A stretch of 64,000 nucleotides of DNA from Proteiniborus sp. (GTDB lineage: Bacteria > Bacillota > Clostridia > Tissierellales > Proteiniboraceae). Where the stretch lies: contig NZ_JAWRHZ010000060.1 in the NCBI RefSeq assembly GCF_040308045.1, positions 41,197 to 105,196 on the forward strand, written 5' to 3'. Positions 3,443 to 64,000 of this stretch are shown in pieces. The translations under genes and the position numbers were made by a program. Below the pieces are notes generated by a model. It was given only the letters and a program-made list of their open reading frames with translations, did no database searches and was not told where the DNA came from. Each line of letters begins with the position of its first letter. Within the stretch, counting starts at the first letter, position 1.

Positions 3443-4063
3443 TTGGAAGAATATGTAAAAGATCCTAAAGAGATAGAGCGTAGAAGCTTTGAAATAATAA
3501 CAGAAGAACTGGGAGAAAAAAAGTTTGAAGAAAGTATAGACAAGATAGTTAAAAGAGTAATCCATACTACTGCAGACTTTGAATATGCTGATATACTTGA
3601 GTTTCATCCAAAGGCTATTGAAGCAGGAAAGAAAGCACTAAAGGAAGGCTGCTCTATATATGCAGACACCCAAATGATTATAGGTGGAGTAAATAAAAAA
3701 AGCCTTTCTAAGTATGGAATTCAAATATTCAATCTTGTTCACGATAAAGATGTGACAGAAAGGGCTTTAAAAACTGGCATTACTAGATCTATGGTAGCCT
3801 TAGAAAAAGCAGTATCAGATGAAAACATAAGAATATTTGCAATAGGCAATGCACCTACTGCATTGTTTACTTTAAAAAGGTTGATAGAAGAAGGAAAGGC
3901 AAAACCTGATTTGATAATAGGAGTACCTGTAGGATTTGTTGGAGCAGCAGAGTCTAAAGAATCTATTAGAGATTTAGGCGTACCATATATAATAACTAGA
4001 GGCAGAAAAGGCGGAAGTACTGTTGCAACAGCAATAATCAATGCCTTTCTATATATGATATAG
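3443..4063 (+). CDS. cbiC: Cobalt-precorrin-8 methylmutase
   Basis: 206 aa. VIHTTADFEYA and IGNAPTAL motifs. TTG start 9 nt after GAGGAGG. Confidence 0.9.
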   Translation: MEEYVKDPKEIERRSFEIITEELGEKKFEESIDKIVKRVIHTTADFEYADILEFHPKAIEAGKKALKEGCSIYADTQMIIGGVNKKSLSKYGIQIFNLVHDKDVTERALKTGITRSMVALEKAVSDENIRIFAIGNAPTALFTLKRLIEEGKAKPDLIIGVPVGFVGAAESKESIRDLGVPYIITRGRKGGSTVATAIINAFLYMI

Positions 4064-5188: not shown

Positions 5189-5805
5189 ACAAAATATCAG
5201 TAGTTGGACTAGGACCAGGTCATCCTGATTATATATTGCCTAAGGCACTAAGTATTATAAATGAGTCAGATATAATAATTGCAGGAAAGAGAAATCTCGA
5301 AAGCATTGATGTAAGTAGAAAAATCACCTTTATAGTAGGAAATAACCTTTCTCAGATGATAGAGTTTATAAAAGAAAATAGAGAAAGTAAAAAAGTATCT
5401 GTAGTAGTTTCAGGAGATACAGGATTTTATAGTATGCTTAGATATTTAAAGAAGCATTTCGGGGCTGAGGAGTTAGATGTAATAACAGGTATTAGCTCTA
5501 TGCAATATATGTTTGCAAGAATAGGACAAAGCTGGGAAGATGCTTATTTAGGAAGCTTACATGGTAGAGAAAATGAATTCGTTAAAAAAGCTAAAGAATA
5601 TGACAAGGTAGGACTACTTACTGATAATAAGTGGACTCCAAGTAAAATAGCTTCGGAGCTATTAATAAATGGAATCAATGAAAAGAACATGTATGTAGGA
5701 GAAAATTTATCATACGAAAATGAAAGAATAACCAAAGGAAGTATTGAACAATTTGCCGAGAAAAAAGAATACCATATTTGCGTGGTGGTGATAAGCAATG
5801 AGTAG
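5185..5805 (+). CDS. cbiE: Cobalt-precorrin-7 (C5)-methyltransferase
   Basis: 206 aa tetrapyrrole-methylase fold (VVGLGPGHPDY). 4-nt overlap with the cbiD stop. Confidence 0.85.
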   Translation: MNKISVVGLGPGHPDYILPKALSIINESDIIIAGKRNLESIDVSRKITFIVGNNLSQMIEFIKENRESKKVSVVVSGDTGFYSMLRYLKKHFGAEELDVITGISSMQYMFARIGQSWEDAYLGSLHGRENEFVKKAKEYDKVGLLTDNKWTPSKIASELLINGINEKNMYVGENLSYENERITKGSIEQFAEKKEYHICVVVISNE

Positions 5806-6388
5806 ATGGACGTATGCTACATCAGGTATACCTGATAATTTATTTAAACGTGGAAAAGTGCCTATGACTAAGGAAGAAGTAAGGGCAATTACTATAAGTA
5901 AATTGAGACTAAGAAATACAGATGTAATAGCAGATATAGGTGCAGGTACAGGTTCTATATCTATAGAAGCTGCCTTAGTTGCTAATGAGGGAAAAGTATA
6001 TGCAGTAGAAAAGAATAAAGAAGGGGTACAGCTTATTAATGAAAACATCAGTATTTTTGACGTGAATAATATAGATGTAATAGAGGGAGTAGCTCCAGAT
6101 GTATTATCTCAAATAGGAAAAGTTGATAAAGTAATCCTAGGAGGAACTGGAGGAAATATAATAAGTATATTTGAGTGGGTAACACACAATTTGAAACCAG
6201 GTGGCAGGATAGTGTCCAATGCCATTACAATAGAAAATTTGTACAAATCATTAGAGCTTATGAAGTCAAGCGAGTTTGATAATATGGAAGTTACAAGTGT
6301 ATCTATAGCTAAAGGAAGGGCAATAGGCAGTTTAACTATGATGGAGTCTCAAAATCAAATATACATTGTATCTGCTGATAAGAGGTAA
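5798..6388 (+). CDS. cbiT: Cobalt-precorrin-6B (C15)-methyltransferase, decarboxylating
   Basis: 196 aa. SAM-binding DIGAGTGS. 8-nt overlap with cbiE. Confidence 0.85.
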   Translation: MSRWTYATSGIPDNLFKRGKVPMTKEEVRAITISKLRLRNTDVIADIGAGTGSISIEAALVANEGKVYAVEKNKEGVQLINENISIFDVNNIDVIEGVAPDVLSQIGKVDKVILGGTGGNIISIFEWVTHNLKPGGRIVSNAITIENLYKSLELMKSSEFDNMEVTSVSIAKGRAIGSLTMMESQNQIYIVSADKR

Positions 6389-49646: not shown

Positions 49647-51263
49647 TTGAATTTTAAATTTGATCCATTAACTTATAGTTATCCTTCTAGAAGAAATGTG
49701 GTTTATGGTAAGAAAGGTATGGTTGCCACAGGTAATCCGTTAGCAGCGCAAGCAGGGCTTGAGATACTTAAAAAAGGCGGTAATGCTATTGATGCAGCCA
49801 TAGGGGCAGCAGCTACACTAACAGTTGTAGAGCCTACAGCAAACGGAATAGGCGGAGATGCCTTTGCATTAGTATGGACAGGAAACAAGCTTCATGGCTT
49901 GAACAGCAGTGGACCTTCACCTAAATCAATAAGTGCAAAAGCTTTAAAAGAATTAGGTTATACAGAGATGCCTAAATACGGTCTAATACCAGTTAACGTA
50001 CCGGGTGCACCAGCTGCTTGGGCAGAGCTATCAAAGAAGTTTGGAAAGTTAACCTTTGAGGAAGTACTAGAGCCTGCCATTAAATATGCAGAGGAAGGCT
50101 TCACTATTCAGCCAGGTGTAGGGGCTGGATGGGCAGCTGCATTTATGAAATATACCAAGGAAAGAGAAAACAAGGAAGAGTTTCAGACTTGGTTTGATAC
50201 CTTTGCACCAAACGATAATTGTCCTAAAATCGGAGATTATGTTACATTAAAAGACCATGGAAGAACTCTAAAAGAAATAGCAAAAACCATGGCTGAAAGC
50301 TTTTACCGTGGAGAGCTGGCAGAGAAAATAGATGCATTTTCTAAGAAATACGGTGGATATATTACAAAAGAAGATCTAGCTGATTACCATCCAAGATGGG
50401 TTGAGCCAATAAGCACCGACTATAAAGGATATGAAGTATATGAAATACCTCCAAATGGTCATGGAATAACTGTACTGATGGCACTAAATATATTAAAAGA
50501 AATGGAGCTAGGGGCTAAGGATTCCTTTAATAGTACACATCTGCAAATAGAAGCCTTAAAATTAGCCTTTGTAGATGCTCAGAAATATGTAGCTGATCCA
50601 AAGGTAATGAAGGTAAAAACTGAGGAATTGCTTTCTCAGGAGTATGCTAGAGAAAGAAGAAAATTAATAACAGACAAAGCAATAATGCCTGAGGCTGGAC
50701 AGCCATCTAAAGGTGGAACAGTTTATCTTTGTACAGCAGATGAAGAAGGAAACATGGTTTCATACATTCAAAGTAATTACATGGGATTTGGTTCAGGACT
50801 AGTAGTACCTAATACAGGTATTTCACTACATAATAGAGGAGCAAACTTCAATCTAGATGAAGAATCAGATAATTGTATTGGAGGATGCAAAAGACCGTAT
50901 CATACAATTATTCCAGGATTTTTAACTAAGGACGGAAAACCAGTAGGACCTTTTGGAATCATGGGAGGATTTATGCAGCCACAGGCCCATCTCCAAGTTA
51001 TGATAAATACTATAGATTATAATATGAATCCACAGGAAGCACTAGATAGACCAAGATGGCAATGGGTTGGAGGTAAGACTATAGAGGTGGAGCAGAGTTT
51101 TGATAACAGACTAGCGCTAGAGTTAGCAAGAGCGGGACACGATATAGTAGTGAAGGCTAACAGCGTAGCCTTTGGAAGAGGCCAAATAATCTGGAGAAAT
51201 GATGATGGTGTTCTATGCGGTGCAACAGAACCGAGAACGGATGGACAGGTAGCAGTTTGGTAA
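49647..51263 (+). CDS. ggt: Gamma-glutamyltransferase family protein (no signal peptide)
   Basis: 538 aa. GGNAIDAAIG, GIGGDAF and the autoprocessing-site context GGTVYLC. TTG start after AGGAGGAG. Confidence 0.85.
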   Translation: MNFKFDPLTYSYPSRRNVVYGKKGMVATGNPLAAQAGLEILKKGGNAIDAAIGAAATLTVVEPTANGIGGDAFALVWTGNKLHGLNSSGPSPKSISAKALKELGYTEMPKYGLIPVNVPGAPAAWAELSKKFGKLTFEEVLEPAIKYAEEGFTIQPGVGAGWAAAFMKYTKERENKEEFQTWFDTFAPNDNCPKIGDYVTLKDHGRTLKEIAKTMAESFYRGELAEKIDAFSKKYGGYITKEDLADYHPRWVEPISTDYKGYEVYEIPPNGHGITVLMALNILKEMELGAKDSFNSTHLQIEALKLAFVDAQKYVADPKVMKVKTEELLSQEYARERRKLITDKAIMPEAGQPSKGGTVYLCTADEEGNMVSYIQSNYMGFGSGLVVPNTGISLHNRGANFNLDEESDNCIGGCKRPYHTIIPGFLTKDGKPVGPFGIMGGFMQPQAHLQVMINTIDYNMNPQEALDRPRWQWVGGKTIEVEQSFDNRLALELARAGHDIVVKANSVAFGRGQIIWRNDDGVLCGATEPRTDGQVAVW

Positions 51264-55547: not shown

Positions 55548-55621
55548 AAAGTACTATATTTTTTCTTCTGATGAGCTATAATGTATATGTAGAACATAAC
55601 AATATTCTAGAGGTGAATAAA

Positions 55622-56458
55622 ATGGATAATGAAGCATTATTGAAATACTATATATACAATGGTGAAATAGTACCTATATCAAAGGATGATGGATTTAAGG
55701 AAGCAACTTCACCATTGATATATGAAGTGATTAGAATTATTGATGGTGTTCCAGTATTTCTAGAGGGACATATAGAGAGAATGAGAAAGTCAGCTGAACT
55801 AATAGGTAAGACTATAAAAAAATCTGATGAAGAGATTACAGAGGAAATACATAAGCTAATAGATGCTAATAAAGAGCATAACATGAATATAAAGCTTTTA
55901 TGTACTAACATAGATAGCCCAAATCAGACATTTATGATTTATTATAATAAAAGCAGCTATCCAGAAAAAGAAGTATATGCAAAGGGAATCCATACTATTC
56001 TATTCGACTCTGAAAGGGAAAACCCCAATGCAAAAATAGTTAATGCTGATTTGAGACAGAGAATTAATGATGAAATTAAAGCACAAAATGCCTATGAAGC
56101 TCTTTTAGTAAATAGAAATGGATACATTACAGAAGGTAGCCGCTCAAATATGTTTTTTGTAAAGGGTGACAAGGTCTATACAGCACCAGCAGGAGATGTG
56201 CTCTTAGGAATAACAAGAAATGAAATTATGAACGTATGTAGGGAGAGGGACATAGAAGTAATAGAGGAAGAAGTTCACAAGAATTCTTTAAAGGGCCTTG
56301 ATGGAGCTTTTATGACAGGTACATCAGTCAATGCTCTTCCTATAGCGACTATAGATGATATCAAGCTAGACTCGGTAAACAATCATATTATCAAAAGAAT
56401 AGCAGAAGGCTATTTACAAAAAATGCAGGAATATATAAAAATAAATATAAAAAAATAA
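55622..56458 (+). CDS. Class IV (fold type IV) aminotransferase / aminodeoxychorismate-lyase-like
   Basis: ATG 55622 sits 6 nt after AGAGGTGA. EGHIERM, TEGSRSNMFFV and GITR motifs. Confidence 0.8.
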   Translation: MDNEALLKYYIYNGEIVPISKDDGFKEATSPLIYEVIRIIDGVPVFLEGHIERMRKSAELIGKTIKKSDEEITEEIHKLIDANKEHNMNIKLLCTNIDSPNQTFMIYYNKSSYPEKEVYAKGIHTILFDSERENPNAKIVNADLRQRINDEIKAQNAYEALLVNRNGYITEGSRSNMFFVKGDKVYTAPAGDVLLGITRNEIMNVCRERDIEVIEEEVHKNSLKGLDGAFMTGTSVNALPIATIDDIKLDSVNNHIIKRIAEGYLQKMQEYIKINIKK

Positions 56459-56479: not shown

Positions 56480-56508
56480 TTGCAATATGTAAAAAATGGT
56501 GGTAATAT
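56480..56508 (+). promoter_or_regulatory. Putative promoter with an extended -10
   Basis: TTGCAA, a 17-nt spacer ending in TGg, then TAATAT. About 55 nt upstream of the 28-codon ORF. Confidence 0.45.
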
Positions 56509-56564
56509 AAAAAGGTAGCCTAATTTAGTAGGCTTTACCAATAATGAAAAGGAGGCCGTGAAAG

Positions 56565-56651
56565 ATGTTAATGAGAAATTTGAACAGAACTAACAGAATT
56601 GAAAACAGAAATAATAACGGCCTGCGAACAGGTAGAAGAGTTAATTTATAG
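56565..56651 (+). CDS. 28-codon Asn/Arg-rich micro-ORF
   Basis: GGAGG lies 9 nt before the ATG. MLMRNLNRTNRIENRNNNGLRTGRRVNL, followed by a terminator. Whether it is translated is uncertain. Confidence 0.35.
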   Translation: MLMRNLNRTNRIENRNNNGLRTGRRVNL

Positions 56652-56686: not shown

Positions 56687-56715
56687 AGTCGCAGGTGTAT
56701 AGTCTGCGACTTTTT
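56687..56715 (+). terminator. Intrinsic terminator
   Basis: AGTCGCAG-N9-CTGCGACT followed by a T-run. Confidence 0.75.
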
Positions 56716-56753: not shown

Positions 56754-56782
56754 AGTCGTGGGCTAGATGCTCGCGACTTTTT
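56754..56782 (+). terminator. Second terminator-like hairpin
   Basis: AGTCGTG-N11-CGCGACT (one G-U pair) followed by TTTTT. The stem sequence is related to that of the previous hairpin. Confidence 0.5.
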
Positions 56783-56838: not shown

Positions 56839-56862
56839 GTAGTTTTGTATTAAAAAGCCGCA

Positions 56863-56893
56863 GAGTAACTATCTGCGGCTTTTATTATGCCTG
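56863..56893 (+). terminator. Third intrinsic terminator
   Basis: AAAAGCCGCAG-N9-CTGCGGCTTTT. Confidence 0.7.
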
Positions 56894-57026: not shown

Positions 57027-57149
57027 ATGAATGACGTCTTACAGCTGGTAACTTCATTTTATTTACTCGAGAAAAGTGCCAAGAAAAAGGATAAGAAAAG
57101 ACATAGGGACTTTAAGTTAAGCTTAGATCCTGAGAAAAAAGTACATTAG
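57027..57149 (+). CDS. Micro-ORF P1 (40 aa), Lys-rich; divergent member of the array
   Basis: AAGGAGGTG lies 6 nt before the ATG. MNDVLQLVTSFYLLEKSAKKKDKKRHRDFKLSLDPEKKVH. Confidence 0.5.
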   Translation: MNDVLQLVTSFYLLEKSAKKKDKKRHRDFKLSLDPEKKVH

Positions 57150-57178
57150 TATAACATATAGCATTGGAGGTGATAGAT

Positions 57179-57304
57179 ATGTTTATACAAAATCCGATAG
57201 AAGCAAATATTTTGCTATATGATTTAGATAAAGATTCTCGTTTAGAAGAATTTTTAAGGCTAGAAAGTAAAAAGACTAAAAAGAAAAGCGATAGGATGTG
57301 GTAG
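57179..57304 (+). CDS. Micro-ORF P2 (41 aa)
   Basis: GGAGGTG lies 6 nt before the ATG. MFIQNPIEANILLYDLDKDSRLEEFLRLESKKTKKKSDRMW. Confidence 0.55.
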   Translation: MFIQNPIEANILLYDLDKDSRLEEFLRLESKKTKKKSDRMW

Positions 57305-57305
57305 T

Positions 57306-57413
57306 ATGTTTACAAGCTTAATAATGCAATATGATTATCATAAAGATTTTCGTTTAGAAGAATTTTTGAAGCTAGAAAGCAAAAAGACTAAAAAGAAAAA
57401 ATATATGAAATAG
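57306..57413 (+). CDS. Micro-ORF P3 (35 aa)
   Basis: The ATG is 1 nt after the P2 stop, suggesting coupling. MFTSLIMQYDYHKDFRLEEFLKLESKKTKKKKYMK. A 49-nt block is nearly identical to P2. Confidence 0.5.
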   Translation: MFTSLIMQYDYHKDFRLEEFLKLESKKTKKKKYMK

Positions 57414-57492
57414 TATTATGTTCAGTCTTTCTAAGCTAAATCGGAAAAAATAGATTTTCCAAAACACATTACAGGATAGGCAGGTGATATGT

Positions 57493-57618
57493 ATGAATTT
57501 ATTAGGGGTAACTGTTACAGAATTTGAACTAAAAAAATATGAAACAAAAAAAGATGTTGGTTTAAATGAGTATTTAAGACTAGAGTTCAAAAAAAATAAA
57601 AATATTTGGAGGAGATAA
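57493..57618 (+). CDS. Micro-ORF P4 (41 aa)
   Basis: AGGTGA lies 5 nt before the ATG. MNLLGVTVTEFELKKYETKKDVGLNEYLRLEFKKNKNIWRR. Confidence 0.5.
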   Translation: MNLLGVTVTEFELKKYETKKDVGLNEYLRLEFKKNKNIWRR

Positions 57619-57622
57619 TGTG

Positions 57623-57715
57623 ATGTTTGATTTTAATATTATGAACGATTTTGAAGTTAGATTTTATAGGGGGTTAAATGAATACTATAAACTTGAATTT
57701 GAAAACAATACCTAG
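57623..57715 (+). CDS. Micro-ORF P5 (30 aa)
   Basis: GGAGGAG lies 8 nt before the ATG; the SD overlaps the end of P4. MFDFNIMNDFEVRFYRGLNEYYKLEFENNT. Confidence 0.5.
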   Translation: MFDFNIMNDFEVRFYRGLNEYYKLEFENNT

Positions 57716-57742
57716 CTACGCTATCAGATAAATCAAACATGG

Positions 57743-57772
57743 GGCAGATGTTAATAAGTGTTAATATCTGCC
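57743..57772 (+). promoter_or_regulatory. Stem-loop between the micro-ORF array and the GNAT gene
   Basis: GGCAGAT-N16-ATCTGCC with no T-run; the loop contains a direct repeat GTTAAT..GTTAAT. Confidence 0.35.
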
Positions 57773-57803
57773 TGCATATCAAACCTAACAAGGGGGTTAT
57801 AAA

Positions 57804-60800
57804 ATGGGAGATATTAAAATAGTAGAATACGATAAAATGTATGCTAAATCATTAGCGGATATGTGGAATATGAGTATGGACAGTTGGGGTGGTTCGGATA
57901 GCATATACACTGAAGAAAGTGTAATTGAAGAAAATGAAAATACAGGAAATCTAAACATATATGTAGCTTTAGATGGAGATGAGGCTGTTGGATATTGCAG
58001 CTTTTCAGAATATAGGCAGGATGAGGGAGCCTTATACATTCCTACATTAAATGTTCGTCCAGATTACCATGGGAAAAAGGTAGGAAAAGCATTAGTACTT
58101 CAGGCTGTTAAAAGAACTATAGAGTTAGGGTGGCCTAGGATTGACTTATACACTTGGCCAGGCAATACAAAAGCAGTTCCGTTATATAAGAAGTGTGGCT
58201 TCTTCTGGGAGAAAAGGGATGATTCTACGCATTTAATGAATTTCATACCTACAGTATTGCAAACAGATGCTGTGAAGGAATTCTTTGAAGTGTTTGACTG
58301 GTACCAGGATTGTAAGAGAAATATTGAAATAAAGCCAGATGGAAATGAAGAAGATAAGTTTTCAAATTATGAGTACATATGGGAAAAGGACGAAAAGTAT
58401 CTAAGAATGGGTTTTGACAGAAAAGGAAGGGGATTGCGTTTAATCGAGACTGATGATTATCTAATAAGTGCAGATATTCAAGAGCAAGAGCTAGTTTTCG
58501 GAAGGGAATATAATATAAGCTACAACATTGTAAATAAAACTGGTAAAAAATTAGATATAACTATTAATGGAGAGGATGATAAAAATATTAAGTTTTCCTT
58601 TAAAACAGTCTCGTCAGTAGAAGATAAGCAAACCATTACTGCTAGCTTTTTTGTTGATGCAATAGAAGAGGAGCAAAGTCATTGGAGAACCCATCCTTGT
58701 GTGCTAGCTAATATATCAATTAATGGTAAAAATGCTTTGTTTAAGATAGGAATTAAGCCTAAGTTTCCAGCAAAGCTTTCCTTATCAGCACCAAATACAC
58801 ATAAGTTGAAGAATACAAGTTCAGAATTTTATATTGATATTGAAAACAGCTTTAAGGAAAAGGCTGTATTCCAGTTTGTATTACCTGAATCAGATAATAT
58901 AATAATTCAAAATAGGAGCTTTAGCATAACATTAGCTTCACAAGAAAAATCCTCTATAATGGTGCCATACATTTTAAATAAATCATTTTCATATGAGGCT
59001 ACGATAAGTATTAAGGCAAATCTTTCAAATAGCTCTGTGGAATTTAAGAGAAAGATATCCTTACAATTTAGTGGATATAATAGTAAATTTGGTGGAGAGT
59101 CAGATGAATATTGGAGCGTGTTTAATGGAAGCTATTCATTACATTTAACTAAGTTCGATAATGACTTAATATTAAGAAGAATACCTGGAATCAGTCATGA
59201 AGTGGTAGCATTCTATCCTAAGATTGGATTGCCTTTTTCTCTTGAATTCTCTAAGGAAAGGCCTCACACAGTAGAAAGTTATTGTGAAGGTGATTACATT
59301 GCTTTAAAAGCTTTTTATAGCTCAAGAGACTTTAAACATATACAGATTGTATCTATATCAAAGCTATATGCTAATGGTTTGGTAGAACACAGCTATGAGA
59401 TACAGAACACTAATGATGTAGATGCTGATGAGGAAGTATGGTTTAGTCAGAGCTACTATTATGATCTTATAGATGCTATCATTCCTTACGAAGATAAGTA
59501 CATAAAATTAATTGGAGAAGATAGCAGTGGCTTAGATTTTTGGGATAGCAATAAATTTACTGAGAACTGGATTTACTCCAGCGAGGAAAATGCAACTATC
59601 AGCCTATGCTGGCCAGTGAAGGACAAAATAAAATTCAACAACTGGTATTTGTCAATTGACAAAAATCTAGGCAAGATTCCTGCTCATTCAAGTATATGTA
59701 CAGAACCATGCTATATGGCAATAGATACCTTTAAGGATTGGAAGGAATTAAGAAGATTTGCAATGAAGGATGGCTGTCAAGATAATAACAAGCTGAACAC
59801 CACTGATAAGCTTGAAATAAATATTAACAATGGAAATCCATTTGTAGGTGACAGATTTGATGTAAGGATAAAAGACTATAGAAAATCTTATTTTGATGGA
59901 AAAATGAAACTAAGTTCAATTAATGATTCCATTAAAGAGCTTGAGAAAAAATTCAGTATTATTGATCAAGCTAATGAGACTGTATTTTCTGTTACTGGAA
60001 ATAACACTCCTAAAATTGATACATTAGCATTGAATATTGATTTTGATTCAGTATTGCTACAGAAGAAGTCGGCAGTATTTAAGATTGACGACAATGCAGT
60101 GATTAAGAAAAATAGAAATATGAGAAACGGAATGGAAACTTTATCACTTGATAATGGAGAAATGATAATTAAAACTTCTCCGCAGTTTTCAGGTACTATA
60201 TATTCTCTACTATACAACTCTAAGGAATGGCTCGATACTTCTTTTCCTGAACCTAGACCTAAATCATGGTGGAATCCATGGTTTGGTGGAATAGTAACAT
60301 TGCCAGAAGAAATGACTGCGAGGTCATTTGCTGAAGAAGATAGAGAAGCGGATTTCGTAGAACTAAACGATAATGTAGGAAATACTTGGAATGGAATAGT
60401 CATAAGAACAAATATAAAGAAAAATGAAAAATTCAAGGGACTTAAGATAGCACAGTACTATTTAATGCTTCCAGGAGTACCAGTACTATGTCAAACTACA
60501 GAAATTACTCAAGAGACAGGTTATTATTTTAATTCTAAGAGCTTCATGACAGATATGTATCTTAAGCTAGATGAAGAGTATAAAAACAGCATGGTAACCA
60601 TAAAGACTCTCTCTGGACAATTAGCAACATATAAAGCAGTAAAAGACTATGATATTAAAACTGATGGAGCTTTGATTTTCAGTAGTGTAAATAGGGAGGA
60701 TAAGCTGATGGTTTATAATAATGGAAACATTCCTATGTATGGCTTTACCGATAACGAAGCAATAGGGGCCTGTATAATTAATAAAATGGATATTAAGAAT

Positions 60801-60896
60801 AATGAAAAGGTCTTCTTACCAGCAAGCTTTTTAATATTTACTAATGAAGTAATGGATGATGACATGTTGAAATGCTTAAGAAATATAAGATTTTAG
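57804..60896 (+). CDS. 1030-aa protein: N-terminal GNAT acetyltransferase domain fused to a roughly 870-aa region of unknown function
   Basis: AAGGGGG lies 7 nt before the ATG. GNAT core GYCSF...LNVRPDYHGKKVGKALVLQAVKRTIELGW...NTKAVPLYKKCGFFWE. The rest is beta-rich and I recognise no motif in it. Confidence 0.8.
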   Translation: MGDIKIVEYDKMYAKSLADMWNMSMDSWGGSDSIYTEESVIEENENTGNLNIYVALDGDEAVGYCSFSEYRQDEGALYIPTLNVRPDYHGKKVGKALVLQAVKRTIELGWPRIDLYTWPGNTKAVPLYKKCGFFWEKRDDSTHLMNFIPTVLQTDAVKEFFEVFDWYQDCKRNIEIKPDGNEEDKFSNYEYIWEKDEKYLRMGFDRKGRGLRLIETDDYLISADIQEQELVFGREYNISYNIVNKTGKKLDITINGEDDKNIKFSFKTVSSVEDKQTITASFFVDAIEEEQSHWRTHPCVLANISINGKNALFKIGIKPKFPAKLSLSAPNTHKLKNTSSEFYIDIENSFKEKAVFQFVLPESDNIIIQNRSFSITLASQEKSSIMVPYILNKSFSYEATISIKANLSNSSVEFKRKISLQFSGYNSKFGGESDEYWSVFNGSYSLHLTKFDNDLILRRIPGISHEVVAFYPKIGLPFSLEFSKERPHTVESYCEGDYIALKAFYSSRDFKHIQIVSISKLYANGLVEHSYEIQNTNDVDADEEVWFSQSYYYDLIDAIIPYEDKYIKLIGEDSSGLDFWDSNKFTENWIYSSEENATISLCWPVKDKIKFNNWYLSIDKNLGKIPAHSSICTEPCYMAIDTFKDWKELRRFAMKDGCQDNNKLNTTDKLEININNGNPFVGDRFDVRIKDYRKSYFDGKMKLSSINDSIKELEKKFSIIDQANETVFSVTGNNTPKIDTLALNIDFDSVLLQKKSAVFKIDDNAVIKKNRNMRNGMETLSLDNGEMIIKTSPQFSGTIYSLLYNSKEWLDTSFPEPRPKSWWNPWFGGIVTLPEEMTARSFAEEDREADFVELNDNVGNTWNGIVIRTNIKKNEKFKGLKIAQYYLMLPGVPVLCQTTEITQETGYYFNSKSFMTDMYLKLDEEYKNSMVTIKTLSGQLATYKAVKDYDIKTDGALIFSSVNREDKLMVYNNGNIPMYGFTDNEAIGACIINKMDIKNNEKVFLPASFLIFTNEVMDDDMLKCLRNIRF

Positions 60897-60908: not shown

Positions 60909-61304
60909 ATGAAAATAATAGATGCCCATTTGCACTTTTCTAGAATTGAAAGCTTTGAGAAAACAGCTAAGGATATTTCCTTTGTAGATTATTCTGCATT
61001 AGGACTGAATAAGGAGTTTGAGAATAATAATATTATAGCAGGGATTGGAATGGGAGTAACAGAGGAAATGAAAGGAGGATTCCCTGACGTTTCCTCCTCT
61101 AATCCCATGAGCCTCGACTTAGAACATAAGCTACCAAGTAAATTAGCATATTGTGTTGGTATTAATCCAGTTAAACTGGTAGGAGAATCAAAAGAAAAAG
61201 AGCTCTTACAAATTGAAGAAGCATTAAAGAATAATTCCATTGGCATAAAGATATATGCAGGGTATTATCCATTTTATGTATTTAGCAAGCTAAAGAATAA
61301 GTAA
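60909..61304 (+). pseudogene. Truncated amidohydrolase-family gene (N-terminal third to half only)
   Basis: MKIIDAHLHF... metal-binding HxH start and ...GIKIYAGYYPFY, then a stop after 131 codons. 61305-61412 is non-coding. Full-length relatives, as I recall them, are about twice this size. Confidence 0.5.
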
Positions 61305-61412: not shown

Positions 61413-62843
61413 ATGCAGGTTAGTATGTCAAGGTATTTGCAAGAGAAGAAGCAGTTACTAAAGGAACTAGTTTCTGAATTATCCAAGTCTTTTAAATATG
61501 TATCTGTTTTAGGAGCAGATACATGTGGTAAGACATATTCTGTTTACAAGACAGGAATTAGCTTAAACGATTCAGAATGGACTGAGAGAGGATTTGTAGT
61601 GAGAGTTCATAATGGATACAATTACTCAGAATATTCCTTTAATAGACTATCAGAAGAAGGATTAGGTTCACTAATCGAAAACATAAAGAATAAGGTTAAT
61701 AATGATATTAACAGACTGAAAGAATCAGCAGTGAAGATAGGTACTTATCCAGTTATTGAAGAGGATAAGATTGCAGAAAAGGTTTTCAAAGAAGTAGAGA
61801 TACTTCCTGAGGAAGTAAGTGCTGAGGAAAAAATTAAGACAATGACTAGAATAAAGGATGAGGCCTTTACTTATTCAGATTTGCTAGTGGATTTTAGAAT
61901 AACCTATGGAGACTGTCATGTATCAAAAATCTTTATTTCTCAAAATAAAGATTTAGAGCAATCCTACATATGGAGTCAGGGAAGTCTTTCAGCAGTAGTT
62001 AGAAAAGATGATAATACCAAGTTTTACTATGATAGTGTAGCGGGACTAAAGGGTGTTGAACTACTTGACGAGCTTCAGCATAAAGTAAAAGAAGTAATAT
62101 CGTATGCAGAGAAACTTCTAGATGCAAAGAAAATCATCCCAGGAGAATATGATGTCATATGCTCACCAGGAATAGCAGGCTTAATAGCACATGAGGCTTT
62201 TGGACATGGTGTTGAAATGGATATGTTCGTTAAAAATCGAGCAAAGGCTGCTGAATTTATTAATAAAGAAGTGGCATCAGAGTTAGTAATAATGCATGAT
62301 GGAGCAGCTGCAGCAGAAAATGTATCCTCATACTTTTTTGATGATGAAGGCGTTCTTGGAACCGATACAATAATAATAGATAAAGGAATTCTCAAAACTG
62401 GAATATCAGATTTACTTTCAGCACTAAGGCTAGGTACAAAGCCTACTGGCAACGGTAAAAGAGAATCCTTTGAAAGGAAAGCCTATGCAAGAATGACTAA
62501 TACATTCTTCGAAGGTGGTAAAGATAAACTTGAGGATATGATTGCTTCAGTAAAAGAAGGCTACCTTCTTGACGTTATGTTAAGTGGTATGGAAGACCCA
62601 AAAAACTGGGGAATTCAGTGTATGATTCTAATAGCAAAGGAAATAAAAAACGGAGTGCTAACAGGAAATATTATGTCTCCTGTTATTATGACTGGCTATG
62701 TTCCAGATGTTCTAAAATCCATCTCTATGGTATCAGAGGAAGTGGAGATTTTTGGTTCAGGAGCTTGTGGAAAGGGCTACAAGGAGTGGGTAAAAGCAGC
62801 TGATGGAGGTCCATATATTAAAGCAAGAGTGAGGTTGGGATAA
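61413..62843 (+). CDS. tldD: TldD-family metallopeptidase
   Basis: 476 aa. HEAFGHGVEMD (HExxxH) and a C-terminal GxC...GG region. GAGGGGGTG lies 5 nt before the ATG. Confidence 0.85.
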   Translation: MQVSMSRYLQEKKQLLKELVSELSKSFKYVSVLGADTCGKTYSVYKTGISLNDSEWTERGFVVRVHNGYNYSEYSFNRLSEEGLGSLIENIKNKVNNDINRLKESAVKIGTYPVIEEDKIAEKVFKEVEILPEEVSAEEKIKTMTRIKDEAFTYSDLLVDFRITYGDCHVSKIFISQNKDLEQSYIWSQGSLSAVVRKDDNTKFYYDSVAGLKGVELLDELQHKVKEVISYAEKLLDAKKIIPGEYDVICSPGIAGLIAHEAFGHGVEMDMFVKNRAKAAEFINKEVASELVIMHDGAAAAENVSSYFFDDEGVLGTDTIIIDKGILKTGISDLLSALRLGTKPTGNGKRESFERKAYARMTNTFFEGGKDKLEDMIASVKEGYLLDVMLSGMEDPKNWGIQCMILIAKEIKNGVLTGNIMSPVIMTGYVPDVLKSISMVSEEVEIFGSGACGKGYKEWVKAADGGPYIKARVRLG

Positions 62844-64000
62844 TGATAGATAAAATAAAAGAAATATTATCAAATATTGAGGGTCTAGACGGATGGAAGC
62901 TCAATGAGAAGAAAGTAGAATCAAAGGAATTATTCTTTATAAAAAAAGAGCTTGATATGAATAGAGCTAAGGATGTACACCATATAAGCATCACTGTTTA
63001 TAAGGATTTCGAGGAAGACAGCAAAAAATATAGAGGCTCATCTACAACTGCAATACATCCTACTATGAATGAAGAAGAAATAAAAAATGCGATAACTAAT
63101 GCCCTATATGCTGCAGGCTTTGTTAAAAATGAATACTATCCATTAGTGGAGCCTAAGGTAGAGATTCAACCGATAATGGAAAATAGATTTTTCAAGGAGT
63201 CTATGTCAAACTGGATGCCTAAGCTTACAGACGAAATCTTTATTGCTGATAAATATGATAATGGGTGGATTAATTCAGCTGAGCTTTTCCTAGACAAGGT
63301 AAATATAAGAATACTTAACTCTGAGGGAGTAGATGCATCATACGAAACCTACAGGGGAGAGCTTGAGTTTATTACAAATTGGAAGGAAGATGAAGGCGAA
63401 GAAGTAGAGCTTTACCAGGATATTGTTTTTTCTGATTATGATGACAAATTCATAACCGAATCTGTAAATGAAATGCTTAAAATATGTAGAGATAAAGCAA
63501 TTGCAAAACCTACACCTATGATAAAAGATACACCTATAATATTATCTGGAGAGCCAGTAAAGGAATTCTTTTACTACTACTATGACCAAGCAGCAGCACG
63601 CTCGATCTATGAACAGACTTCAACTGCTAAGATTGATAAAAACATACAGGGTGATGATGTAAAGGGAGACAAAGTTAACATTGAACTTGACCCTTATCTA
63701 GACAACTCTACAGCTTCAGCACCTTATGATGAAGATGGTCTAAGGCTAGCTAGAGTTTCATTATACGAGGATGGTGTATTAAAAAGATATTGGGGCAATA
63801 CAAGATTTTCTCATTATTTAGGTATCAATCCGACAGGTACCATAAGAAATGTATTAGTAGAAGGTGGCAGTAAGACCTTAGAAGAAATCAAAGAAGGTCC
63901 TTATCTAGAGCTTAAAGTATTTTCTGATTTTCAGATGGATACATTGACAGGTGATTTTGCTGGTGAAATAAGATTAGGCTGGTACAATGACGGAGAGAAA
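62843..64000 (+). CDS. pmbA: PmbA/TldE-family protein (partner of TldD), 3' end beyond the window
   Basis: The ATG overlaps the tldD TAA by 1 nt. The frame is open for 386 codons to the window end. No HExxxH. ...GPYLELKVFSDFQMDTLTGDFAGEIRLGW is typical of the PmbA_TldD fold. Not in the track because it runs off the end. Confidence 0.75.
   Translation, partial: MIDKIKEILSNIEGLDGWKLNEKKVESKELFFIKKELDMNRAKDVHHISITVYKDFEEDSKKYRGSSTTAIHPTMNEEEIKNAITNALYAAGFVKNEYYPLVEPKVEIQPIMENRFFKESMSNWMPKLTDEIFIADKYDNGWINSAELFLDKVNIRILNSEGVDASYETYRGELEFITNWKEDEGEEVELYQDIVFSDYDDKFITESVNEMLKICRDKAIAKPTPMIKDTPIILSGEPVKEFFYYYYDQAAARSIYEQTSTAKIDKNIQGDDVKGDKVNIELDPYLDNSTASAPYDEDGLRLARVSLYEDGVLKRYWGNTRFSHYLGINPTGTIRNVLVEGGSKTLEEIKEGPYLELKVFSDFQMDTLTGDFAGEIRLGWYNDGEK

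Follow-up and report, generated by a model that had tools for sequence, protein, structure and literature searches.

We analysed a 64,000-nucleotide stretch of DNA from Proteiniborus sp. (contig NZ_JAWRHZ010000060.1; the whole stretch is called the window below) and, within it, an array of five very short open reading frames (ORFs), P1 to P5, together with the RNA elements and genes around it. The array is located between a gene for a class-IV aminotransferase (55571-56458) and a gene for a 1030-amino-acid (aa) protein with a GNAT acetyltransferase domain (57804-60896, hereafter GNAT-1030), and the five ORFs and the GNAT-1030 gene lie on the plus strand. P1 (57027-57149) encodes a basic, Lys-rich peptide of 40 aa, P2 (57179-57304) a peptide of 41 aa, P3 (57306-57413) one of 35 aa, P4 (57493-57618) one of 41 aa and P5 (57623-57715) one of 30 aa. 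P1 to P5 are very probably real protein-coding genes of a new family, because their frames and Shine-Dalgarno (SD) sequences are kept among relatives and the ratio of nonsynonymous to synonymous differences (pN/pS) is low.

The five-ORF array and its relatives

The lengths, SD sequences and spacings that the initial annotation had given for five same-strand ORFs were all found in the sequence. The SD sequences and spacings are AAGGAGGTG-6-ATG (P1), GGAGGTG-6-ATG, AGGTGA-5-ATG and GGAGGAG-8-ATG, and the SD sequence of P3 is weak, unlike those of the four other ORFs. P3 translationally abuts P2, its ATG being 1 nt past the P2 stop, and P2 and P3 share a 49-nt block (57239-57287 and 57351-57399) with exactly three mismatches; both points agree with the earlier description. 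This block is part of a 98-nt repeat of 84% identity. P2 and P3 also contain AAA AAG runs of Lys codons, and the final codons of P4, UGG AGG AGA, double as the SD of P5 (57606-57622).

With a G+C content of 27%, the array region holds five ORFs that start with ATG and have at least 29 codons; they cover 84% of the plus strand, and there is none on the minus strand. Simulation of the region under a first-order Markov model with the same ORF cut-off (n = 5000) gave a mean of 0.5 ORFs, 8% coverage and a maximum of four ORFs, and none of the 5000 simulations matched the observation. An antisense ORF of 72 aa (57372-57590) partly overlaps the array and is only 52 aa long in the related locus L001. 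The ORFs had been taken to be unannotated. This holds only in part: RefSeq has P1 (WP_352420255.1), P2 (WP_352420256.1) and P4 (WP_352420257.1) as hypothetical proteins, and public gene calls contain P3 and P5 as well, though unnamed.

Relatives were gathered via the GNAT protein and via the peptides themselves, and their loci are labelled L001 to L096. Same-strand arrays were found in L001/L002, L003-5, L086-91, L006, L007/L096, L092/L093, L094 and L095. L001/L002, whose GNAT is 88% identical, have orthologues of P1, P2, P4 and P5, and L090 (GNAT 63% identical) has P1, P2, a P3-type copy and P5. L003-5, L086-89, L091 and L094 carry one or two copies of the type M..LLELL.FP...KHTG[FY]EEYA[KR]LE..., with GNATs that are 82-83% identical where present. 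Four copies are found in Brassicibacter mesophilus (L006, GNAT 66%), at least three in L092/L093 and two in L095. Dethiothermospora halolimnae (L007/L096, GNAT 49%) has seven copies of 33 codons, three copies of the array being nearly identical, and one terminal copy of 27 codons. Thus, the copy number of the family per array ranges from 1 to 8.

Frame-breaking changes in relatives, or a dN/dS near 1, had been named beforehand as signs against coding. No frame-breaking change was found between orthologues when the arrays of the relatives were compared, dN/dS is well below 1, and the frames turned out to be conserved at the syntenic loci. Orthologues have equal lengths within at most one codon, nearly all copies across the relatives keep a strong SD, and frames, starts and SDs are retained even where the GNAT of the relative is only 49% identical. 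Nei-Gojobori dN/dS values of orthologous peptide pairs were 0.11-0.66, and those of the GNAT gene were 0.13-0.19; the P2 orthologues in L001 and L090 gave 0.15-0.66. P4 has an orthologue in L001, and its subtype is also found in Brassicibacter and Dethiothermospora. The pooled pN/pS was 0.46 for the window versus L001 (Fisher p = 6e-4) and 0.32 for the window versus L090 (p = 3e-12). The codons of conserved Gly, Leu and Glu residues vary mostly at the third position (GGT/GGC/GGA/GGG; TTA/CTA/CTT/CTG/TTG; GAA/GAG). Frame conservation and purifying selection across species, by which a protein-coding gene is recognised, were thus both observed.

P2 to P5 form one family with the consensus K-[KR]-D-x-G-[LFY]-x-E-[YF]-x-[KR]-L-E-[FYLS]-[KR]-[KR], placed after about 15-20 variable residues. 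A hidden Markov model (HMM) of the family was built from 19 peptides of several loci and searched over six-frame translations; it recovered P2 to P5 at 45-64 bits and found no other match in the 64-kb window. P2 (63.6 bits) belongs to the subtype ...RLEEFLRLESKKTKKK..., P3 (45.7 bits) is a paralogue of P2, P4 (50.3 bits) belongs to the subtype KKDxGLxEYLRLEFKK..., and P5 (44.8 bits) is the array-terminal subtype, ending in ...KLEFENNT. The initial annotation had described all five peptides as homologous, with P1 more distant; this holds for P2 to P5 and fails for P1, which showed no detectable homology to them (hhalign probability 0.6%; no match by the family HMM). The idea that P1 is a distant paralogue of P2 to P5 was rejected on the hhalign result. 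As judged from the sequences, P1 is a separate conserved micro-protein gene, so the array consists of four paralogues and one other gene. P1 orthologues of identical length are present in L001 and L090, with dN/dS of 0.20-0.33.

The conserved part of the family is C-terminal and the N-termini vary, as had been proposed: pN/pS was 0.15 in the 10-codon core and 0.53 in the N-terminal part. The value of the core is comparable to the 0.13-0.19 of the GNAT gene. The C-terminal part under selection reads K-K-D-x-G-[LFY]-x-E-[YF]-x-[KR]-L-E-[FYLS]. The family peptides are 27-41 aa long, and the stop comes 0-12 residues after the core, a distance that differs between copies; some copies in Brassicibacter and Dethiothermospora stop directly after the core, and P2 to P4 bear a Lys-rich tail. 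The aromatic position of the core varies among F, Y and S, and the following position among S, F, L, Y and C. AlphaFold2 (AF2) with the family alignment predicted one long helix, with the best confidence over the core (predicted local distance difference test score, pLDDT, 87). P1 to P5 are hydrophilic, with a grand average of hydropathy (GRAVY) of -0.74 to -1.05, and mostly basic, with a net charge of -3 to +5.

The paralogue subtypes and their order are conserved across arrays. N-x-T or K-T is the ending of the final ORF in most arrays (...EFENNT, ...ECRNKT, ...YINKT, ...FIDNT), as seen in L001, L006, L007, L095 and others; L090 ends in NNP. The arrays of L003-5, L086-89, L091 and L094 close with a short terminal ORF that ends in FIDNT or FIDST. 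This ORF, which closes the KHTG[FY]EEYA-type arrays, is a second terminal micro-ORF type of 26-31 aa (e.g., MIILLKGSTNKRNNEVSEKLTSDFIDNT; L003 7804-7890, L086 5784-5864, L091 3002-3088 and L094 8243-8338) and resembles the P5 type only in the C-terminal ...F-I-D-[NS]-T ending. In several arrays, as in P4, the SD of an ORF lies within the final codons of the ORF before it, and the terminal W/Y-R-R residues are therefore under a dual constraint of coding and initiation. In Dethiothermospora, UAU AGG AGG UAA doubles as the next SD (L007 5406-5417 and 5513-5524).

The near-identity of the 49-nt block had been read as a sign that at least one duplication is recent. This is doubtful. The 63% relative L090 has distinct P2- and P3-type copies, and P3-type copies share a Lys where P2-type copies have Arg; because this P3-specific Lys is present in both the window and L090, the duplication is probably not recent, as far as the sequences tell. 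The near-identity of the block may reflect gene conversion or constraint. An in-frame remnant of the family (..YRLEVFLKLKSKRL..) lies in L090 at 5760-5819, as a decayed copy just upstream of the P5 orthologue, and L092 has an intact copy with a GTG start (3578-3670) after AAAGGAGGTGA. The decayed copy and the GTG-start copy suggest rapid gain and loss within arrays, which points to birth-and-death evolution of the P2-P5 family.

The family had not been recognised by the initial annotation, and searches of Pfam, NCBIfam, PHROGs, PDB and large protein collections bore this out. Pfam and NCBIfam, including models of precursors of RiPPs (ribosomally made peptides with post-translational modifications), gave nothing for P1 to P5 at E <= 1 except one chance-level Pfam match (E = 0.14); PHROGs gave nothing below E = 0.086, and the best E value against PDB sequences was 0.18. 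A word-indexed profile search of 5.8 billion proteins returned 23 clusters, which contain same-clade peptides only, and an exhaustive HMMER run over 1.84 billion representatives returned 17 matches, 16 of which are same-clade peptides of 29-41 aa. Neither search connected the family with any larger protein or named family, and the sources that name family members say 'hypothetical protein' only. In JGI metagenomes, the pattern G[LYF][END]EY[LAK][RK]LE gave 214 stretches, none of which was confirmed, and a stricter degenerate DNA pattern gave no match. By NCBI taxonomy, the family ranges over Proteiniborus (Clostridia incertae sedis) and two genera of Thermohalobacteraceae (Tissierellales). No description of a peptide family linked to GNAT and TldD genes was found in the literature.

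Leader RNA, terminators and the stem-loop after the array

A structured leader RNA is predicted upstream of the array (56515-56651, plus strand). In its helix (56553-56623), AGGCCGUGA (56553-56561) pairs with UAACGGCCU (56615-56623) to form a long-range helix of 9 bp, which shows covariation in an alignment of 19 loci. Over these loci 91.8% of the cells are paired, versus 21-37% when the 3' partner is slid. Seven of the nine pairs have compensatory double changes, and none of 500 shuffles was as good. The compensatory variants are GGCCG/CGGCC, GGUCGCG/GCGACC, GACCAU/AUGGUC and GGUUGUAU/AUACAACC. The leader RNA precedes the array in each locus for which upstream sequence is present, and it is conserved upstream of GNAT-1030 in Proteiniborus and in Thermohalobacteraceae. 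It also precedes GNAT-1030 genes without peptides in uncultured Clostridia, Ornithinibacillus and Paucisalibacillus. In a regular-expression census, the helix was found in 20 of 92 upstream regions of loci with a GNAT-1030 gene, versus 2.5 by chance.

The predicted helix sequesters the SD of a putative leader ORF, P0 (56565-56651, plus strand), which has 28 codons (MLMRNLNRTNRIENRNNNGLRTGRRVNL) and starts 7-9 nt after the sequestered GGAGG. A counterpart of 22-30 codons was found at the same position in those leader-bearing loci whose P0 was read out, and P0 is missing from public gene sets. From its sequence, the leader RNA is a candidate attenuator or riboswitch. Rfam 15 gave no family at the leader; the best E value in the window region was 0.27, far below the gathering cut-off, and nothing was found in eight related loci. 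A T-box or another known riboswitch was ruled out by this search. Attenuation through the Asn codons of P0, three of which lie ahead of the helix's 3' arm in Proteiniborus, was also considered and rejected, as these codons are not kept in Ornithinibacillus and other lineages. A candidate promoter of the leader and array transcript lies at 56480-56508 on the plus strand (TTGCAA, 17 nt, TG-n-TAATAT); it has 8 of 12 consensus positions and an extended -10 TG, and it scored below the threshold of the scan. This sequence is thus a weak candidate.

Three terminator-like hairpins with U tracts (56687-56711, 56754-56778 and 56853-56883, plus strand) lie between the leader and P1. A terminator scan found three sites in the scanned region, two of which are these plus-strand hairpins, where 0.3 was expected. 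The first two hairpins are alike in sequence (AGTCGCAGG...CTGCGACT and AGTCGTGGGC...GCTCGCGACT), and the third has a folding energy of -19.6 kcal/mol (z = -4.8). The same layout, with three hairpins in the same order, is present in L092 and L094. A strong stem-loop without a U tract (57739-57777, plus strand) lies between P5 and the GNAT-1030 gene; the minimum free energy of the region is -24.6 kcal/mol (z = -3.2). At the same place, L001, L090, L003 and L007 have a stem-loop of different sequence, and a strong stem-loop without a U tract follows the last peptide gene in every lineage examined.

Downstream genes and the possible role of the peptides

GNAT-1030 consists of a RimI-like GNAT domain (about residues 1-165; Pfam Acetyltransf_1, E = 8.5e-17) and about 860 aa of all-beta sandwich domains. 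Its AF2 model has a pLDDT of 83.8, and a Foldseek search against PDB gave generic beta-sandwich matches only (LacZ, complement C3/C5; TM-score < 0.2), with no functional clue. The protein of the window is 100% identical to a Proteiniborus entry at NCBI. The GNAT-1030 family has 1135 homologues across Bacillota, and scanning one genome for each GTDB species gave 465 confirmed matches (Brevibacillus, Paenibacillus, Fictibacillus, Neobacillus, Alkaliphilus, Halanaerobiales and others). A TatD-like gene nearly always comes next; in the window this is a truncated gene for a TatD/amidohydrolase-like protein (60909-61304, plus strand), which encodes 131 aa compared with 285 in L001, L003 and L086. 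Tblastn gave no match in the window with a coverage of at least 50% for the L001 protein. The truncated gene has some 100 nt of non-coding DNA after it and is probably a deletion or a pseudogene; L090 is without a TatD-like gene. Then come a gene for a TldD-like M103 metalloprotease (61413-62843, plus strand; 476 aa, Pfam PmbA_TldD_3rd E = 2.2e-43, NCBIfam TldD) with an intact HEAFGH motif (HExxxH), and a gene for a PmbA/TldE-like partner (62843-64000, plus strand), which has a 1-nt overlap with the TldD stop and continues past the end of the window. The latter is 82% identical by tblastn to the PmbA of L001, and its orthologues carry the Pfam annotation. An HExxxH-containing TldD with an adjacent PmbA, that is, a TldD/TldE (M103) pair, is thus encoded downstream of the array.

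The gene order GNAT-1030, TatD-like, TldD and PmbA is shared by the window, L001 and L090, with the TatD-like gene truncated in the window and missing in L090, and L003 and L086 have this order plus an Acetyltransf_19 gene. In Brassicibacter, the array is followed by genes for an M29 aminopeptidase, a major facilitator superfamily (MFS) transporter, GNAT-1030, a TatD-like protein, another GNAT, TldD and PmbA. In L094, the array stands directly before TldD and PmbA. In Dethiothermospora, GNAT-1030 comes after the array, and beyond it stand at least ten more GNAT genes along with genes for a TatD-like protein, a radical SAM protein and an M48 peptidase. The region L096 13271-22759 of Dethiothermospora halolimnae is an unusually dense GNAT island, in which at least ten GNATs stand amid TatD-like, radical SAM and small ORFs, with the M48 gene after them. 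The relatives add GNATs, the M29 peptidase and the MFS transporter, and a radical SAM gene was seen in Dethiothermospora alone. All Proteiniborus-type contigs that are long enough to show TldD/PmbA have it. Among 85 related genome loci with GNAT-1030, a TatD-like gene follows in about 60. TldD/PmbA adjoins GNAT-1030 in a single one of the 85, that of Brassicibacter (L006), and two of the 85, L006 among them, have peptides.

Further genes lie around these loci. A gene of the SDF family (sodium:dicarboxylate/amino-acid symporter) is located between the aminotransferase gene and the leader in L006 (1186-2469), L096 (6506-7753) and L094 (6297-7586) and is missing in the window. The window has a gamma-glutamyltranspeptidase gene at 49647-51263, and an M3 peptidase gene is found nearby in relatives. 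Together, the symporter, the gamma-glutamyltranspeptidase and the M3 peptidase give the neighbourhood a flavour of amino-acid and peptide metabolism.

These observations suggest a model in which the array probably makes up the leading cistrons of an operon that the structured leader and the three terminators would gate, and in which it would be co-transcribed with the downstream genes after terminator read-through. The stem-loop at 57739-57777 might let the peptide mRNA accumulate over the enzyme mRNA. It has been reported that TldD/E threads unfolded N-termini independently of sequence and halts at a steric block (PMC10885120). TldD/PmbA could act as such a sequence-tolerant 'pencil sharpener' on the poorly conserved N-terminal residues, about 20 in number, together with the M29 aminopeptidase in Brassicibacter; the N-terminal part would then be free to vary, because trimming proceeds without sequence preference until a steric block is met (PMC10885120). 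The RimI-like GNAT, or the many GNATs in Dethiothermospora, may acylate an amino group, either of the Lys-rich product or at the new N-terminus, and the conserved C-terminal helix would remain as the functional product or as a docking element. The copy number of 1 to 8, the near-identical copies in Dethiothermospora and the positionally conserved stem-loop suggest a dosage- or precursor-like nature of the peptides. The whole statement, that P1 to P5 are genuine micro-genes of a new family and that the linked enzymes use their peptides as substrates or precursors, is put forward tentatively, with a chance somewhat short of even. Of the roles considered, the most likely one, held with modest confidence, would be that of stoichiometric, abundant helical substrates or precursors on which the co-transcribed acetyltransferase and peptidases act; we would still sooner doubt it than assert it.

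Several points weigh against the substrate or precursor model. No enzyme partner is universal across the arrays: L094 is without GNAT-1030, no TldD/PmbA lies within 10 kb of the array in Dethiothermospora, and L095, where a convergent gene for an M3 oligoendopeptidase adjoins the array, has neither. The linkage to GNAT and TldD genes that the initial annotation had pointed to is therefore frequent and not obligatory. The pair of GNAT-1030 and the TatD-like gene is widespread and mostly found in loci without peptides, of which there are about 75, and the window's own TatD-like gene is truncated. The co-occurrence argument is weakened because there are only about five to six lineages, which are phylogenetically non-independent. 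Furthermore, the peptides are without Cys and poor in Ser/Thr, and Pfam and NCBIfam gave no class-defining RiPP maturase and no RiPP recognition element (RRE) domain in the window. None of the enzymes that usually cluster with RiPP precursors (YcaO, LanB/C/M/KC, radical SAM-SPASM, ATP-grasp, MNIO, PEARL etc.) was found there. The initial annotation had likened the layout to a follower-peptide or recognition-tag design, a RiPP reading that is a conjecture at most. No RRE-like Pfam domain was reported among the proteins of the neighbours, and the beta-sandwich part of GNAT-1030 is without an assignable function.

The main rival to this model, which we regard as somewhat unlikely, is that the peptides are stand-alone helical micro-proteins that are not processed and might serve as small adaptors, inhibitors or regulators, docking via the conserved amphipathic helix on a protein or a nucleic acid, with the enzymes merely co-regulated. 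The arrays are retained in loci whose downstream enzymes differ or are absent (L094, L095 and L096), the constant neighbour in loci with upstream sequence is the leader RNA, and the conserved subtypes and their order, with the N-x-T or K-T type last, suggest distinct and non-redundant roles. The N-terminal part is still somewhat constrained at its pN/pS of 0.53, and the simple helix of the AF2 model is typical of micro-proteins that bind a partner. However, no partner can be named, the near-identical copies and the fast change of copy number fit the dosage of a consumed product better than regulators, and the recurrent association with oligopeptidases (TldD/PmbA, M29 and M3) would be a coincidence.

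A less probable explanation, and one that we consider quite unlikely, is that the ORFs are cis-acting regulatory upstream ORFs of the ribosome-arrest or attenuation kind, in which the nascent C-terminal chain tunes the downstream operon. The position of the array between the leader/terminator module and the enzyme genes would suit this, as would the regulatory RNA that adjoins the array wherever upstream sequence exists, the AAA AAG runs in P2 and P3, and the concentration of conservation in the last 15 or so residues, as in arrest peptides. Against it stand the up to eight copies, nearly all with their own strong SD, which span 0.3-0.8 kb and include distinct conserved subtypes, and the distance from core to stop, which varies from 0 to 12 residues. 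The array of L095 has no co-directional gene after it, and P0 with its covarying helix is already a plausible attenuator.

It is very unlikely that the peptides are leaderless secreted peptides of the phenol-soluble modulin (PSM) or multi-peptide leaderless-bacteriocin type, which would act on the membranes of competitors or in biofilms. The architecture resembles that of the psm-alpha and aureocin A70 operons, a helix is predicted by AF2, and the Brassicibacter operon includes the MFS transporter gene. On the other hand, the GRAVY values are -0.7 to -1.5, the charge is mixed, the hydrophobic face is too short for membrane insertion, and there is no ABC exporter or immunity gene in the window or most relatives; example sequences of PSMs and leaderless bacteriocins have positive GRAVY values. 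Finally, the reading of P1 to P5 as non-genes (chance ORFs, decayed gene fragments or a repeated non-coding RNA) could appeal to the SD-like purine runs that are common in AT-rich intergenic DNA and to some decayed copies (L090 5760-5819), but it deserves hardly any credence and is largely refuted by the simulations, none of 5000 of which reached the observed ORF content, the pN/pS significantly below 1 (0.15 in the core), the predominance of third-position variation at conserved residues, the frames, starts and SDs held in relatives with a GNAT of 49% identity, the lack of an Rfam match, and the opposite strand, which has no ORF of at least 29 codons and whose overlapping antisense ORF is shorter in L001.

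Returning to the model of substrates or precursors, a stronger version of it would make the peptides a new ribosomal-peptide class without a leader-recognising maturase, with trimming by TldD/PmbA (and M29 in some species), capping or acylation of the remaining Lys-rich helix by RimI-like GNATs, and a leader-RNA switch that also controls GNAT-1030 elsewhere in Bacillota; this version is unlikely. If the peptides are indeed processed or acylated, the pathway would be an inverted RiPP-like one, with a conserved C-terminal product and a disposable N-terminus. If they are not processed, the arrays offer a clean model of tandem birth-and-death evolution of micro-proteins. The analysis adds an unnamed micro-protein family to the few bacterial micro-ORFs with evolutionary support from purifying selection, synteny and paralogue order, the synteny spanning Proteiniborus and two Thermohalobacteraceae genera. 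It also provides a concrete peptide candidate for the operon-encoded TldD/PmbA and for GNAT-1030, both of which are without known physiological substrates in Bacillota, the latter being a fusion family of more than 1000 uncharacterised homologues. In addition, it reveals a covarying leader RNA that is missing from Rfam.

Comparison with known systems

The closest comparison is with the RiPP precursors that are trimmed by TldD/TldE (microcin B17 McbA, klebsazolicin and the Yersinia microcin C analogue) and with pearlin clusters that encode TldD/E-like proteins. As in these systems, short peptide genes head an operon with an HExxxH-containing TldD and a PmbA, a stem-loop follows the structural genes, and the non-conserved N-terminus suits N-terminal trimming (PMC10885120). 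Unlike them, the array has no YcaO/McbBCD, MccB or LanB-like enzyme, no RRE and no Cys/Ser/Gly-rich core; its conserved part lies at the C-terminus, where it would need to serve as the product or a docking site. The Dethiothermospora locus, which is without TldD/PmbA, also differs in this respect.

The psm-alpha peptides of Staphylococcus aureus, aureocin A70 and enterocin L50 are encoded by tandem ORFs of 20-45 codons with their own SDs; they have no signal or leader, are helical and were long overlooked. PSMs and leaderless bacteriocins are hydrophobic or cationic, amphipathic and membrane-active, and they come with ABC exporters. The array shares with them the tandem short ORFs with their own SDs, the helical products and the neglect by annotation, whereas its peptides are hydrophilic (GRAVY about -1) and an exporter is missing in most loci. 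The positive GRAVY, high pI and ABC exporter or immunity gene of leaderless bacteriocins and PSMs were not found together with P1 to P5, and the operon has no ABC transporter.

TnaC, SecM, MifM and ErmCL are single short ORFs that are coupled to one mRNA switch, and their selected C-terminal residues are read by the exit tunnel. The array ORFs resemble them in lying upstream of other genes and in their C-terminal selection. They differ in their number (1 to 8 copies), their strong SDs, the conservation of subtypes and the variable tail that follows the core. Judged by layout, the array would thus not be a single upstream ORF with an adjacent mRNA switch, and P0, which lies inside the covarying helix, suits the role of an arrest or attenuation leader better than the array ORFs do.

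PqqA and MftA are encoded by very short ORFs, sometimes in multiple copies, and have an invariant Glu/Tyr core near the C-terminus. The array is like them in being multi-copy and in having a conserved core rather than a conserved leader. Unlike theirs, its surroundings in the window hold no pair of a radical SAM enzyme and an RRE, and a radical SAM gene is present in the Dethiothermospora cluster only. The variation of the aromatic position and of the residue after it argues against one fixed cross-link. In summary, the layout is unlike that of every known class: the core at the C-terminus is conserved, the N-terminus is not, and no maturase can be recognised. Neither the peptide family nor the leader RNA has been described, and the general kind to which the locus belongs, tandem micro-ORFs before genes for processing enzymes, is a familiar one.

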